This document shows positions 14,014 through 35,727 of a stretch of DNA of 37,552 bases, piece after piece (within the stretch, counting starts at the first letter, position 1; each line of letters starts with the position of its first letter). Below the pieces are notes generated by a model. The model was not told the origin of the DNA. It saw nothing but the letters and a program-made list of their open reading frames with translations, and searched no databases. A program made the position numbers and the translations under genes. Source of the DNA: Bacteroidota bacterium (GTDB taxonomy: Bacteria; Bacteroidota; Rhodothermia; Rhodothermales; UBA10348); assembly GCA_022571135.1 (NCBI GenBank), contig JACZYK010000001.1, positions 1 to 37,552 on the forward strand, given 5' to 3'.

Positions 14014-14720
14014 GCAACCTTTCGTTTGTCTACTTCGACCTGGACGACACGCTTCTAGACCACAAACAAGCAGAGCGCCAAGCACTCGAAGATCTGTACG
14101 ATCAATACCGAGGCTGCCTCGGCTCAAATGGTCTTTCCTCGCTCCAGGATATGTACGCCGAGATAAATGCCGACGTGTGGAAACGATACGGCGCCGGCGA
14201 AATCGACAAGGTGCGGGCCAAACTGGAGCGTTTTGAACTATTGCTGGCAAGACTTGGTCTCGACGACGCTAGCGATGCAGGCGAACTGAGCGCGTTCTAT
14301 CTGTCGAGATACTCCAACCACTGGTCCTTCTTGCCCGGAGCCAGTGAGGCATATCAGAGCATCGCGAATCGACTGCCGGTCGGTATCCTCACTAACGGTT
14401 TCATTGAGATTCAGCATGCCAAGCTGAGGCAGTTTCCCGAGATTGAGCGTGCTGCCCGAGCCATTGTAATCAGTGAGGAGGTCGGATACTTGAAGCCGGA
14501 TCCTAAGATATTCGACCATGCGACGAAACTGGCAGACTGTGCACGGGAGGAAATCCTTTTCGTGGGGGATTCTCTCCGCTCCGACGTGCTAGGCGGTCTG
14601 AGAGCCGGATGGAGGGTGGCGTGGTTTACACAGGCGGAGGATGGACCAAGGGATGCATTCAGGTTCTGCTCATGGGACCAACTCCTCGATCGTATCGCCA
14701 CGCGCAGAAAGTCTTCTTAG
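14010..14720 (+). CDS. HAD-IA family hydrolase (YjjG-like phosphatase/nucleotidase)
   Basis: Motif I (FDLDDTLLD), LTNG, and motif III/IV (KPDPKIF ... VGDSLRSDVLGG). ATG 14010 overlaps the upstream TGA. The tracked ORF start at 13848 lies inside the previous gene. Confidence 0.85.
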   Translation: MSNLSFVYFDLDDTLLDHKQAERQALEDLYDQYRGCLGSNGLSSLQDMYAEINADVWKRYGAGEIDKVRAKLERFELLLARLGLDDASDAGELSAFYLSRYSNHWSFLPGASEAYQSIANRLPVGILTNGFIEIQHAKLRQFPEIERAARAIVISEEVGYLKPDPKIFDHATKLADCAREEILFVGDSLRSDVLGGLRAGWRVAWFTQAEDGPRDAFRFCSWDQLLDRIATRRKSS

Positions 14721-14722
14721 AG

Positions 14723-15373
14723 CTATAGACCTAAACGGTTCAACAGATAGTCGATCCGGCTTCTCCACCCGAGTCCATAACCGTACCTATCTGCGGTTCC
14801 ACGTCCGAAGTGTTCTACGTATTCCTCTACGGGGTAAGAACAGATTCGCCATCCATTTCTGGCCGCATCGATGCAGTTCTTCAGAACCGGTAGTCCGTGG
14901 TGTTCGAACGGCGCGAGCAACTCGTATTTCTCTTTTCTGATCAACATGAAGGCTGAAACCGGAACGGGTGTACCTGCTGTGGCGGCAAAGCCCCTTCTAT
15001 TCACCGTTACAATCTTTCCGACGGCATAACACATTGAATCTTCCGTCATCATCTTCGTCATCGCCTCGAGAAAGCCCCCACTTTTCGTGCGGGTATCGCT
15101 GTCAAAAACGTACACAAACGGGGTCTTGCTGCTCCGGATCGCCTGATCCATGGCAGGGCCGTGATACAGGTTCTCCGCATTCCGAATGAGGGTTATCGAA
15201 TCCGGAAAGGCGGCCTGAAGTGTTTTGATGCACTCGAACGAGTCATCCATCGAGCCGTTCTCGACGACAATTAGCGGGACGTCCCGATAGTATTTCCTGA
15301 ACGATCGGACAGCATCGGTCAGGAGATCCGGGGTCTGATAATTGATGACGGCTGCTGTAACGAGCCCCTGCAT
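14723..15373 (-). CDS. Glycosyltransferase family 2
   Basis: From MQGLVTAAVINYQTPDLL: a GT-A N-terminus, ENGSMDDS, and a DSD motif (VFDSDT). The tracked ORF extends to 15652, but that upstream part runs through a terminator and repeat sequence. ATG 15373 is the first plausible start. Confidence 0.8.
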   Translation of the reverse strand: MQGLVTAAVINYQTPDLLTDAVRSFRKYYRDVPLIVVENGSMDDSFECIKTLQAAFPDSITLIRNAENLYHGPAMDQAIRSSKTPFVYVFDSDTRTKSGGFLEAMTKMMTEDSMCYAVGKIVTVNRRGFAATAGTPVPVSAFMLIRKEKYELLAPFEHHGLPVLKNCIDAARNGWRICSYPVEEYVEHFGRGTADRYGYGLGWRSRIDYLLNRLGL

Positions 15374-15408
15374 TGCTGACCCTTTCCTGAATCGAACCGG
15401 CACAAAAC

Positions 15409-15434
15409 AAAAAAAGCCACTCTCTAAGAGTAGC
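15409..15434 (-). terminator. Rho-independent terminator ending the candidate RNA gene
   Basis: The minus strand reads GCUACUCU-UAG-AGAGUGGC (8 bp including one G-U pair) followed by UUUUUUU. The plus strand shows A7 at 15409-15415. Confidence 0.65.
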
Positions 15435-15652
15435 TTCCTTTGCTTCCCGACGCGCGGACCTCCCCTGGCTTGAATCTTCCACCGAAGTGGCCGAGCCGAA
15501 CCAGTTGAATGGGAGGTTCGGGTCTCTATGGTTTCCGACTTTCCGGTTTCCCGGACCATCGGTGACGTATTCCACCCTTGCGAGTTTCCTACGTAATGCC
15601 TTCGTCGTGTGGGCACACGGCGGAGACAGTTCGCCCACGAACACTCCCACAT

Positions 15653-15987
15653 GTTTCTTCCACTCTCCCGAAGGATTGCTTCCGTCGCACACGGCTGTGT
15701 GTTTCTTCCACGACTCCGAAGAATCGTTTCCGTCGCACACGGTTGTGTGTTTCTTCCGCTCTCCCGAGGGATTGCTTCCGTCGCACGCTGCTATGTGTTT
15801 CTTCCACGGCTCCGAAGAACCGTTTCCGTCGCACACGGTTGCGTGTTTCTTCCACGGCTCCGAAGAACCGTTTCCGTCGCACACGGTTGTACGTTTCGTC
15901 CACTCTCCCGAAGGATCGCTTCCGTCCCGTACGCCCTGCGTTTCTTCCGCTTTCCCGAAGGATAGCTTCCGTCGCGCACGGCCTCTC
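15653..15987 (-). repeat. Tandem array of seven 48-nt units (one is 47 nt) plus a degenerate eighth unit reaching about 16030
   Basis: Plus-strand unit starts at 15653, 15701, 15749, 15797, 15845, 15893 and 15940, each beginning GTTTC(T/G)TCC. Units 4 and 5 are nearly identical. All six reading frames are open across the array. Confidence 0.95.
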
Positions 15988-16486
15988 TTCCCTTCTGCCA
16001 GCGGCTCCGAAAAGCACTGTCAGCGTGTAGAGAAGAGGTTCGCTTCGCCCGTTTTTCGGTCCGCTTCTTTCCCCGAAATCGGCCAAAGCCGACTGCGGTT
16101 CCATCAGCAGTCCAACGGGCTCAGCCCCCGCCGGTCCAGAACTTAACGCCGGGACGTGTCCATTCCAGTTTCCAGCGAGACTTACTCACCCTTTACATCT
16201 TCCGCGATCGCCGAAGCTTTCGCTTCCGTTGCATCAAGCCACCTTCCGCCTTCCTCCGGTCACTTGCCTCTGACTTCCGAATCTTTCGACTCTTCCACCA
16301 TTGACATCACGGGGGACTGCTTCCGGTGCGATCCGACTCCAGTCGGATACTCTCGAGAAGTATAAGACCTTCATCGCCGGTCGGAGCGGTTAGTGTCGTC
16401 ATGATCTTTCGATCACGTGCGGGCCAACCTCATGCAGCCTAGAGACTCAGTCACGTCAAGGAACGGTGCCGTCAGGCACTGGACGT

Positions 16487-16515
16487 ATTATATTCCTATA
16501 TGGTACTGATGTCAA
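16487..16515 (-). promoter_or_regulatory. Exact sigma70-type consensus promoter (TTGACA, 17 nt spacer, TATAAT)
   Basis: The minus strand reads TTGACA (16515-16510), TCAGTACCATATAGGAA (17 nt), TATAAT (16492-16487). An A lies 7 nt downstream at about 16480. Confidence 0.6.
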
Positions 16516-16835
16516 TAGCAACGACATTCTGGAAGTCCACAAAGAGTTCACACAGATATCCACAGCGGGGTTGACAGACCGAATGAGCGAGTGTGAATCT
16601 GTCCGGCGACCGGTTATCGGCGACGGGCAGAAGTGCAAAAAGCCCGACCGTTAACGACCGAGCTTTTCGCTGCCCATTGTCACTACGCGACCGAGAGATC
16701 CCGTTCTCGGGATGCATTCCAGGCGGCATGATTGGACGCTAAGATAAGTCGATCTATTTCCATTAGCAAAAAACAATAACGGATTAACCCGTTCCTTGGC
16801 GAAACAGCATCAAGAAGGGGGGAATACAATAACGG

Positions 16836-17459
16836 TTACAAACCGATCAGACTTAAAAAATTTCCCAGTGATCTCGGTTCGATCATGATCGTCAGCAGCA
16901 AACCACCCAGCGCTCCCCCCAGGTGCGCCTCGTGTGCGATCCACCCACTACCCCTGCTCGCCTGTTTTTTCATGGCGTATATCGACAGGGCAACGAACCC
17001 GATTGCGAACAGCCATGCAGGAATCGGAAGGAGTCCAAACAATACGATTTGCCTGAACGGATTGAAGAGGCAGAACGCAAATAAAATTCCCGAGATAGCG
17101 CCCGATGCGCCCACAGCCGAGTAGGACTCATCGTTGCGGTGGGCGTAATAAACCGCTCCGTGGGCCGTCAACAGCGAGCCGAAGTAAACCAATATGAATG
17201 CGGCCGAACCCATTCTCAGTTCCAGATACGGTCCGAAGTAAAAAAGCGTGATCAAATTGAAGGCCAGGTGCCCAAGGCCGGCATGAACGAAACCCGCCGT
17301 AATGAACCGATAGTACTCCCTGTCTTTCCTGATCCTCTTGGGTCGAAAAGCCATACGACCCATCAGGGATTCGTCCATGAACATCGAGTAGAGTCCAGTC
17401 AGAATGTTGATGAGAATTATGAACAGGGAGACTGGAGCTTCTGAGAACACGTTGAGCAT
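16836..17459 (-). CDS. Rhomboid family intramembrane serine protease
   Basis: Six or more TM segments, HxxxN region (HAGLGHLAFN), catalytic GASGA(ISG) and a downstream AHLGGALGG histidine motif. Confidence 0.9.
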   Translation of the reverse strand: MLNVFSEAPVSLFIILINILTGLYSMFMDESLMGRMAFRPKRIRKDREYYRFITAGFVHAGLGHLAFNLITLFYFGPYLELRMGSAAFILVYFGSLLTAHGAVYYAHRNDESYSAVGASGAISGILFAFCLFNPFRQIVLFGLLPIPAWLFAIGFVALSIYAMKKQASRGSGWIAHEAHLGGALGGLLLTIMIEPRSLGNFLSLIGL

Positions 17460-17615
17460 ATCGTATGGCCGTGGATTCCACTATTTTAGATTCGTGAAAC
17501 CGGGAGGATGCTTCCCGAACGGCCTCGTGTACGAGTCCGTCTGCCCTAAGTTCAATTCGACGGGCCACGTGCCTGAACGGCCTTGATAAAACCGCCGGTG
17601 GCATCGCGAAATGAG

Positions 17616-18383
17616 CTACAGAGACAACGTTTGAGGTGCACGGTGTAGTTCCTGCCGCCGGTGCAACTCTCTCACACGCCTGTTGAATCGAGCCATTCGC
17701 ATTCGAAGGGATGTCTCCGTGGCACCGACGATCTCGGAGATCTCCCGGTAAGTCATCGATCCACTGAACACGCGATACCTGAACAGCAGTTGTATGATCG
17801 GGTCGGCCTGTTCGAGCGCAACACTCGCAGTGTGAACCCGTCGCCGGTCTTCGTCTGAAAAGCGTTCGAAGCCGAACTCGGGAGTATGTATGACGGCTTC
17901 GGAGGCATGATATTCGATTTGCTCCGGAGCCAGAATAGACTCCCGCTTCAAGGAGCGTCGTTTCCTTTTCAAGAAGCGCTGCAGGTTGTTCTTCAGCATA
18001 CGGCGCGTGTAATGTTCGACGGATCGAACGCGGCGCCATGACTTTTCGAATTCAATGAGGGCCTCGGTCGCTAGATCCTGTGCGTCGTGGTAGGACAGAA
18101 GGGGCTCGACTGCTGTCTTTTCCAGGTAATATCGCCGCCCGCATTCGTGTACCCAGACAAACATTCTCTGTCTGTCAGACTCGTCACCTGCCAGCGAGCG
18201 GTGCAACCAGGCATCCGGACCCGCTGGCTCCTCTTTTTCATCCGGAGCATGACGGCCGTCCCGGAGCACGGTCTCCCGAGCAAAGTGTCCAGCCGAAGCG
18301 CATAACGTCGATGAGTCTGCGGGATGATGAAACGTAGCGAAAGGGCGCTTCCGGCCCGATGTTGATCGTGGAGTTCCGGTCAT
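17616..18383 (-). CDS. Sigma-70 family RNA polymerase sigma factor (ECF-like); start uncertain
   Basis: Region 2-like segment (AGDESDRQRMFVWVHE...DAQDLATEALIEFEKSW) and a region 4 HTH (MTYREISEIVGATETSLRMRMARFNRRV). The N-terminal ~50 aa look non-conserved. Confidence 0.75.
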   Translation of the reverse strand: MTGTPRSTSGRKRPFATFHHPADSSTLCASAGHFARETVLRDGRHAPDEKEEPAGPDAWLHRSLAGDESDRQRMFVWVHECGRRYYLEKTAVEPLLSYHDAQDLATEALIEFEKSWRRVRSVEHYTRRMLKNNLQRFLKRKRRSLKRESILAPEQIEYHASEAVIHTPEFGFERFSDEDRRRVHTASVALEQADPIIQLLFRYRVFSGSMTYREISEIVGATETSLRMRMARFNRRVRELHRRQELHRAPQTLSL

Positions 18384-35241: not shown

Positions 35242-35727
35242 ATGAATCGATCCTCAGCAATGCTCGTCGCCGTTATTGTTTTCGGCGTGGCCGGATGCCA
35301 AGACATCAGCTCCGAGCATGATGAAGACCCGATCATAGCGCTGCCAGAAAAATAGGTGGCGTTCGACCAACGGTTCGAGGTGGGTCTGGGCGAGAGGGTG
35401 GTTTTAGAAAATACGGGCACGGAAATCACCTTCTCTGCGGTTACCCACGATTACCGCTGTCCCTGCGATGTCCAGTGCATTCAAGCAGGCGAGGCCGGAA
35501 TCGTTTTGACCGTAACGGACAGTCTCGGTAATGATTCGCAGGTTTTTATTACCATTCCCGGACTTATTCTGACGCCCTATCGGGCCGATGATGCCACGGG
35601 CCATGGAAACCGGCATTTTCGACTCATGCGTTTGAACCCTTATCCGAATACCGGCCAGGACCAGAGTGTACAGGACTATCGCGCTCTCATGATGATCGAA
35701 TCCGTGTTGGACGATCGGGGCGTGTGA
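35242..35727 (+). pseudogene. Lipoprotein gene interrupted by an in-frame TAG (a 37-codon signal-peptide ORF plus a 123-codon mature-domain ORF in the same frame)
   Basis: ATG 35242 encodes MNRSSAMLVAVIVFGVAGC (lipobox VAGC) ... ALPEK, then TAG at 35353-35355. The tracked ORF at 35356-35727 starts on the very next codon in the same frame, and its Cys-containing CPCDVQC domain has no signal peptide of its own. Confidence 0.5.

Follow-up and report, generated by a model that had tools for sequence, protein, structure and literature searches.

A large structured RNA and a complementary small RNA encoded side by side in Rhodothermales genomes

Here, we describe two adjacent RNA genes on the minus strand of a 37,552-nt stretch of DNA from a Bacteroidota bacterium of the order Rhodothermales (GenBank assembly GCA_022571135.1, contig JACZYK010000001.1, positions 1 to 37,552; the whole stretch is hereafter referred to as the window). 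One gene encodes a large structured noncoding RNA (ncRNA) of a previously uncatalogued family that is present in a single copy and conserved across the order Rhodothermales, whereas the other encodes a small RNA (sRNA) complementary to the most conserved parts of the large RNA. The interpretation that we favour on balance, with moderate confidence, is that the large RNA is a stand-alone, trans-acting molecule that works with this dedicated sRNA as a switch or assembly pair.

A family of large RNAs in Rhodothermales

A genome scan with a pattern derived from the invariant 5′ block of the large RNA recovered homologues in 58 Rhodothermales genomes, including that of the isolate Roseithermus sacchariphilus, with one copy in each (homologous loci are referred to below by L numbers). 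The full-length genome copies measure 588-1074 nt, and the family as a whole, metagenome contigs included, spans ~0.6-1.24 kb. Homologues of the GT2 glycosyltransferase encoded beside the large RNA assign this DNA to Rhodothermales. In syntenic contigs, a gap of ~1.35 kb between a rhomboid gene and a GT2 glycosyltransferase gene alternates invariant and variable blocks. The preliminary description of this DNA, made from the letters of the window, did not recognise a known RNA family, and searches agree: at the gathering score, Rfam 15, with models that include OLE, GOLLD, ROOL, HEARO, raiA, RNase P, tmRNA, SRP, 6S and riboswitches, matched neither the window nor any of 18 homologous loci, and at E<=10 the window returned chance-level matches only (at most 21.5 bits, against the 36-300 bits required). 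ARAGORN found neither a tRNA nor a tmRNA, and full-text literature searches turned up no published description of the large RNA. A phage or other mobile origin was considered and rejected, given that the viral contigs searched for the large RNA had no match and that each genome carries a single copy.

The gene signals are clear-cut. The sigma-70-type promoter (Table 1), with the exact consensus boxes and spacer initially read on the minus strand, scores 12/12 and is the sole promoter-like site within 14500-17500, and TTGAC-N17-TATAAT-like boxes occupy the equivalent position in all homologues. The intrinsic terminator, a hairpin followed by U7 as first proposed, can be read directly, appears in the minimum free energy (MFE) fold and retains its stem with compensatory changes in all homologues (alignment helix 28); a consensus-based terminator scanner did not flag the hairpin at 15436-15409, a miss that may reflect the potential of the stem to extend into the U-run. 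With a promoter and a terminator of its own, both kept in homologues, the segment at 15409-16480 is very likely an independent structured ncRNA gene of the minus strand. Farther upstream, TGTGGA...TGTG...TTTGTGGA repeats recur at about -45 to -80 of the promoter in nearly all loci, and the corresponding block of the window (16536-16565) is a candidate activator site, for example, for a transcription factor of the response-regulator type. The orientation originally read from the promoter and terminator, with which purine bias and loop sequences agreed, is likewise upheld: the minus strand of the region is 59% purine, its MFE is -426.4 kcal/mol vs -359.2 kcal/mol for the plus strand (67 kcal/mol more stable), and TTCG occurs 13 times, compared with 5.6±2.1 in dinucleotide shuffles.

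One could also imagine that the 48-nt (16-codon) tandem array in the centre of the region encodes a repeat protein, given that mechanically called open reading frames (ORFs) of 171-219 aa span the array in several frames and that the longest stop-free stretches over it reach 203, 198 and 127 aa in the three frames. However, the three frames are open at once because a stop-free array unit is repeated, and the reading frame shifts in the closest relative, L004, where array units measure 47, 48 and 45 nt. Variable columns are split 6/9/5 by codon position, so that the third position is not favoured, the other family members have no long ORF at the corresponding place, and the ORFs embedded in the large-RNA region have no Pfam match. 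Substitutions preserve stems instead. A protein-coding gene is thus extremely improbable, and the earlier view that the gap holds no credible coding sequence and would show compensatory rather than codon-periodic substitution is vindicated by the homologues.

Secondary structure of the large RNA

Folding of 12 well-aligned short forms (alignment A2) with RNAalifold yielded 141 predicted pairs in 28 helices, with 94.3% of the cells paired. Changes on both sides were detected for 54 of these pairs, whereas shuffling gave 33.7±3.0 (0/500) and sliding gave 15-24, so that compensatory substitutions clearly exceed both types of control. An 18-sequence alignment (A1) gave only 78 pairs because its variable regions aligned poorly. 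From 5′ to 3′, the conserved layout consists of a 5′ hairpin, the invariant block GUUCCUUGACGCGACUGAGUCUCUAGGCUGCAUGAGG, a core rich in hairpins, many of them GNRA- or UUCG-capped, a hairpin with a UGCCCAU loop (loop C), the helix AACCUCCC/GGGAGGUU and the terminator.

The invariant 5′ block, ~35 nt in length, pairs with the 3′ domain through two long-range helices, P1 and P2, which close ~25 further helices; the MFE fold of the window also yields P1, P2, P3 and the terminator. The consensus pairing of P1 is UUCC.UGACGCG with CGYGUC.GGAA, and this helix extends to 13 bp in a divergent clade that includes L020 and L027. The consensus of P2 is GAGUCUC with GAGACUC, and this helix covaries, with G-C replaced by A-U in L048 and L036 and the entire helix switched to AACUCU/AGAGUU in the L011 group. 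The long-range helices had escaped the preliminary description, which listed local tetraloop hairpins; those hairpins are real, including the GAAA-capped ones at 16419-16400, 16292-16279 and 16226-16213 and the UUCG-capped ones at 15490-15479, 16015-16004 and in each unit of the array.

A probable partner sRNA complementary to the core of the large RNA

The same gap contains a second conserved RNA gene, at 16637-16732, which was overlooked when the large RNA was first, and correctly, proposed. In the window, this sRNA gene is located between the rhomboid stop codon and the large-RNA promoter; across the family, it lies 130-350 nt upstream of the large RNA, on the same strand. The search detected it in 52 of the 54 genome loci with enough upstream sequence, and in the remaining two, variants can be made out by eye; furthermore, the sRNA still adjoins the large RNA in the divergent clade, where all protein neighbours differ. 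The promoter-like arrangement CCGTTATTG-N4-6-TTGC...TATCTT-N7-CTCATG is conserved in ~40 loci. In the window, two CCGTTATTG boxes (16835-16827 and 16782-16774, ~53 nt apart) lie upstream of the -35 element of the sRNA and may be an operator or a site for an activator; another copy of the box, at 35270 on the plus strand, falls within the coding sequence of a lipoprotein signal peptide and was judged to be a chance match. RNAalifold did not recover the variable hairpin of the sRNA, which is visible by eye, because this hairpin aligned poorly.

Three conserved single-stranded blocks of the sRNA are complementary, in antiparallel order, to the three most conserved blocks of the large RNA. The 5′ block matches site A, block 2 matches site B (large RNA CGCGACUGAG with sRNA CUCAGUCGCG) and block 3 matches loop C (large RNA UGCCCAU with sRNA AUGGGCA). 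RNAduplex placed the best duplex sites at constant positions in the 15-16 genomes tested, with site A the best in every one. Across 24 genomes, the 35 intermolecular pairs are 92.3% paired vs 26-42% when slid, and double changes affect 5 pairs vs 2.2±0.9 in shuffles (1/500). Thus, complementarity persists across species at fixed sites, with a modest degree of covariation. At site A, compensatory change turned A-U into G-C in L033 and L053, and at site B, it turned C-G into U-A in L036, L066, L052, L061 and L053; the edge pairs of loop C are compensated as well. In L036, G37 changed jointly with its partners in P2 and in the sRNA. Cofolding predicts a heterodimer at -472.9 kcal/mol, compared with -462.3 kcal/mol for the two monomers. 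Taken from sequence comparison, these patterns suggest that pairing of the sRNA with the large RNA is likely to be functional.

Alternatively, the two RNAs might be independent and their complementarity either coincidental or a reflection of inverted repeats acting at the DNA level, for example, by being recognised by a DNA-binding protein or an invertase. Indeed, as DNA, the blocks are inverted repeats flanking the large-RNA promoter, and the invariant duplex cores leave pairing unprovable there by covariation. However, coincidence fits poorly with three separate blocks matching the three most conserved ones in antiparallel order, nearly all one-sided substitutions yield G-U pairs and do so on the transcribed strand only, and the duplex edges are compensated. 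Moreover, the divergent clade has lost sRNA block 3 together with the UGCCCAU loop, which lies 550-860 nt downstream, and the orientation is identical in ~140 assemblies, with the inverted form of the promoter never seen. Given this evidence, independence of the two RNAs appears decidedly improbable.

Transcript-like metagenome contigs

A metagenome scan added 80 contigs with the large RNA, the ends of which are far from random. Of these contigs, 19 end no more than 25 nt upstream of the conserved 5′ block, compared with 1.9 expected (p about 5e-14), and 15 of the 19 also end within 41 nt past the 3′ strand of P1, 12 of them within 7 nt. The double-ended contigs are 1072-1235 nt long, equivalent to about 16471-15442 in the window, and their sample identifiers show zero overlap with those of the long genomic contigs. 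The transcript-like contigs come from the JGI samples Ga0182065/69/70, Ga0123366/70, Ga0206085/93/94, Ga0210319/27, Ga0316586, Ga0075484, Ga0066625 and Ga0180109. If these contigs were assembled from RNA, their ends suggest a discrete large-RNA transcript. Two of them, L093 and L112, are 84% identical to the large RNA of the window.

The transcript-like contigs (L093, L112, L149, L126 and ~11 more) start ~10 nt inside the 5′ hairpin and typically stop short of the terminator hairpin, 1-7 nt past the 3′ strand of P1. The mature large RNA may be trimmed flush with P1, or the assemblies may break at hairpins. A further contig, L072 (1722 nt), starts 8 nt upstream of the conserved block and runs 988 nt past a ~746-nt RNA; with a GC content of 0.43, unusually low for the family, it may be either a read-through transcript or a DNA contig.

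A possible sRNA-controlled switch

Because the 5′ strands of P1 and P2 share bases with sites A and B, the sRNA-bound and closed states of the large RNA are mutually exclusive. The sequences themselves establish the gene signals, the conservation and secondary structure, the complementarity of the two RNAs and the linkage of their genes; from these features, we infer physical pairing and, with less assurance, a sequence of events. The sRNA blocks would pair with sites A, B and loop C; binding at A and B would compete with the intramolecular closure of P1 and P2; the sRNA would thereby open the large RNA or keep it from closing, so that the pair would act as a conformational switch or in a step of assembly; and, in this manner, it could control the activity, partners or stability of the large RNA. 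The sRNA itself might change shape, given that GCCUG of block 1 can pair with UGGGC of its own block 3 (alignment A4 columns 9-13/64-68; about 16724-16720/16676-16672 in the window): free sRNA may be self-closed and open upon binding the large RNA. An sRNA-controlled conformational switch as such is, in our assessment, plausible but somewhat doubtful; the overlap of the sRNA sites with the closing helices makes it a directly testable mechanism. The locus is carried by a cultured host, R. sacchariphilus (L015-equivalent locus in CP030158), and stranded, rRNA-depleted RNA-seq data of its strain RA are public (PMC7409140).

Several observations weigh against the favoured interpretation of a switch or assembly pair. 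Each of the three intermolecular duplexes has an invariant core, and therefore the covariation between the two RNAs is confined to the edges. Because block 3 can pair with block 1 of the sRNA, its conservation is perhaps partly intramolecular, and in the window itself the loop C duplex comprises only 6 bp. P1 (helix 2) shows wobble changes and zero double changes, its 5′ strand being invariant, so that this helix is argued for by complementarity. The case for expression is indirect, drawing on the contig ends, which would count as evidence if the contigs derive from metatranscriptomes. Finally, control between the two RNAs could run in either direction.

A different division of labour, in which the sRNA is the actual regulator, acting on mRNAs elsewhere, and the large RNA is a decoy that captures it through A, B and loop C, with the rest of the structure serving stability, has some appeal: the complementarity is conserved, multi-site and thermodynamically favourable, and each gene has its own regulated-looking promoter with different upstream motifs. 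Yet ~28 helices and invariant blocks unrelated to sRNA binding (ACGUCCCGGCG, AACCUCCC/GGGAGGUU) exceed the needs of a decoy, each large-RNA molecule offers a single set of sites, and these sites lie hidden within P1 and P2, the closing helices, instead of being accessible. We therefore regard a sponge pair as rather unlikely, though less so than any of the other alternatives considered here.

If the favoured pairing model is taken to its full extent, the locus would encode a two-RNA machine without earlier description, in which an ornate RNA of ~0.6-1.2 kb has its closing helices invaded at three sites by a co-inherited 95-nt RNA, as a switch operated by a trans RNA or as an obligate heterodimer. 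This is a tentative proposal, which we hold with less conviction than the switch itself; if true, such a machine could form the basis of a new ribonucleoprotein, a new ribozyme or an assembly made of RNA only, conserved across a bacterial order.

Table 1. Features of the two RNA genes in the window (P1-P3, long-range and 3′-domain helices; helix numbers are those of the RNAalifold consensus)
Feature	Position	Strand	Description
Large structured ncRNA gene	15409..16480	minus	~1072 nt, predicted transcription start to end of terminator U-run
Sigma-70-type promoter	16487..16515	minus	TTGACA 16515-16510, 17-nt spacer, TATAAT 16492-16487
Conserved block upstream of large-RNA promoter	16536..16565	minus	CTGTGGATATCTGTGTGAACTCTTTGTGGA; TGTGGA/TGTG repeats ~10 and 21 nt apart
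5′-terminal hairpin	16466..16479	minus	GUGCC-UGAC-GGCAC; 100% paired (helix 1); loop varies among homologues
P1 5′ strand	16452..16463	minus	UUCCUUGACGUG, pairs with 15443-15454; RNAalifold and window MFE fold
Site B	16446..16455	minus	CGUGACUGAG in window; overlaps P1 and first P2 bases; complementary to sRNA block 2
P2 5′ strand	16442..16448	minus	GAGUCUC, pairs with 15520-15526; helix 3
Site A	16429..16442	minus	CUAGGCUGCAUGAG; complementary to sRNA 5′ block CUCAUGC.GCCUGG; 95.5% paired
GAAA-capped hairpin	16400..16419	minus	CACGUGAUC-GAAA-GAUCAUG; compensatory changes window/L005/L007; helices 5-6
Invariant block	16145..16157	minus	ACGUCCCGGCGU; small hairpin within covarying stem; invariant in A2; helices 14-15
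Tandem array	15652..15982	minus	Period 48, 6.9 copies (Tandem Repeats Finder); seven 47-48-nt units
Loop C hairpin	15598..15627	minus	Helix 21; loop UGCCCAC in window, UGCCCAU in most genomes
P2 3′ strand	15520..15526	minus	GAGACCC in window
Helix P3	15458..15518	minus	AACCUCCC / GGGGAGGU, encloses UUCG-capped hairpin; helices 24-27 and MFE fold
P1 3′ strand	15443..15454	minus	CGCGUCGGGAAG; RNAalifold and window fold
Intrinsic terminator	15409..15436	minus	9-bp stem AGCUACUCU-UAG-AGAGUGGCU, then U7; direct reading and MFE fold
Partner sRNA gene	16637..16732	minus	~96 nt; nhmmer E=3e-26 in window
sRNA promoter region	16740..16835	minus	TTGCTA -35-like 16769-16764; -10-like TTATCTTA 16747-16740
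sRNA 5′ block	16732-16719	minus	AUCAUGCCGCCUGG
sRNA variable hairpin	16715-16697	minus	
sRNA block 2	16695-16686	minus	CUCGGUCGCG
sRNA block 3	16678-16670	minus	AAUGGGCAG
sRNA terminator	16665-16637	minus	

Relationship to known RNA systems

To our knowledge, very few bacterial ncRNAs longer than 500 nt are known, and the family described here extends their number to Rhodothermales, an order with cultured thermophiles among its members that has received little study. Characterised large ncRNAs, namely, OLE, GOLLD, ROOL and HEARO, opened new biology, including membrane-bound ribonucleoproteins, RNA nanocages and guide RNAs. Like these RNAs and raiA, a group of ornate ncRNAs whose functions are emerging at best, the large RNA exceeds 500 nt, has its own promoter and terminator, dozens of covarying helices, GNRA and UUCG caps and invariant blocks, belongs to one lineage and may likewise be well expressed. 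Unlike them, it comes from a different phylum, has no match to their Rfam models and combines a variable centre, prone to tandem hairpin expansion, with a neighbouring sRNA complementary to the core; we know of no such dedicated sRNA described for any of the five.

The proposed interplay of the two RNAs has partial precedents. As in the case of T-box leaders and tRNA, a small structured RNA would contact a larger one at several sites and select between exclusive helices, but the likeness is one of logic only: the large RNA leads no gene, the small partner is a dedicated sRNA rather than a tRNA, and there is no T-box sequence or Rfam match. The hok/sok system shares the long-range helix joining the 5′ and 3′ ends and a small trans RNA complementary to the 5′ region, and, together with sponge pairs such as GcvB/SroC, exemplifies the mutual titration or remodelling proposed here. 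By contrast with hok/sok, however, the locus has no toxin ORF, nor any conserved ORF, and the sRNA is encoded in tandem rather than antisense; moreover, known sponges are several-fold smaller than the large RNA and far less structured.

The tandem array and other hairpin expansions

The central tandem array noted in the preliminary description is present as claimed but does not define the family: it is a clade-specific amplification of a single UUCG hairpin module. Each unit is built of three elements: a 4-bp stem on the outside (UGUG/CACA), then an internal loop rich in purines (CGACGGAA / GGAAGAAA) and finally a UUCG-capped stem of 7 bp. The array is confined to the clade of the window, where the window and L004 have 7 units each and L093, L112, L149 and L126 have 9-10, whereas most family members, the short forms, carry a single copy of the module (helices 17-18). 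Comparable expansions are observed elsewhere: in L073, L120 and L130, a different UUCG hairpin is expanded, with a period of ~32 nt, at positions about 440-760, and L113 contains an apparent internal duplication of ~548 nt, such that the UUCG sites 98, 225 and 287 recur at 646, 773 and 835. Such independent expansions of hairpin modules provide natural variants for studying the growth of large RNAs. Two other explanations of the array were discarded: a CRISPR array, given that the units are head-to-tail and without spacers, and a type III toxin-antitoxin module of the ToxI kind, given that a GT2 glycosyltransferase lies downstream, that most homologues lack the array and that the downstream gene varies.

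The repeated hairpins with GGA-rich flanks resemble RNAs of the CsrB/RsmZ type, which sequester an RNA-binding protein in many copies. In the window, the count of GGA is 52, compared with 35.5±3.8 expected (z ~4), and that of GGAA is 34, compared with 12.3±3.0; the seven near-identical units contain two GGAA motifs each; and arrays have expanded independently in several lineages, including in the transcript-like contigs. Across the family, however, the GGA enrichment averages a z of only 1.2 (range -1.5 to 4.3). Because the enrichment tracks the array and is weak family-wide, the array is a peripheral expansion outside the defining core, which itself has no repeat character. Furthermore, GGA resides in the strands of the internal loop, the hairpin loops being UUCG, so that family-wide placement of GGA in hairpin loops or linkers is not observed. 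Among the ORFs scanned around the locus, no csrA-like gene turned up. Protein sequestration is thus an improbable role for this RNA.

Neighbouring genes

In the window, the U-run of the large-RNA terminator ends 35 nt before the start codon of the GT2 gene, with no evident promoter in between, and in some other loci, too, a GT2 gene follows on the same strand, which raised the possibility of a giant cis leader that controls read-through of its own terminator into GT2. This possibility, voiced in the preliminary description, fares badly in the comparison of loci. In ~25 of them, about half, the next gene is a convergent gene for a HAD hydrolase, so that GT2 is downstream in a subset only; the divergent clade, to which L020 and L027 belong among others, has unrelated genes on either side, and these are not shared even by L020 and L027; and Rhodothermus profundi has a GT2 homologue without the large RNA upstream. 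The RNA thus does not occupy a fixed 5′ untranslated position before a same-strand gene, and its terminator is strong and universally conserved. A cis leader is very improbable, although some read-through into GT2 may occur in the window as a side effect. In some lineages, GT2 looks as if it had been inserted between the large-RNA gene and that for the HAD hydrolase, and it may depend on read-through of the terminator.

A rhomboid gene is located upstream of the RNA pair in most loci, and the encoded protein retains the catalytic GASG and His motifs. A functional link between the rhomboid and the RNAs was considered and rejected: the rhomboid gene is missing beside the RNA pair in the divergent clade, and the linkage is therefore read as plain synteny. 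Two genes upstream of the RNA pair, many loci share a syntenic gene, at 17616-18383 (minus strand) in the window, for a 255-aa protein that matches Sigma70 region 2 only weakly, at E=1.7e-4, which does not pass the Pfam cut-off.

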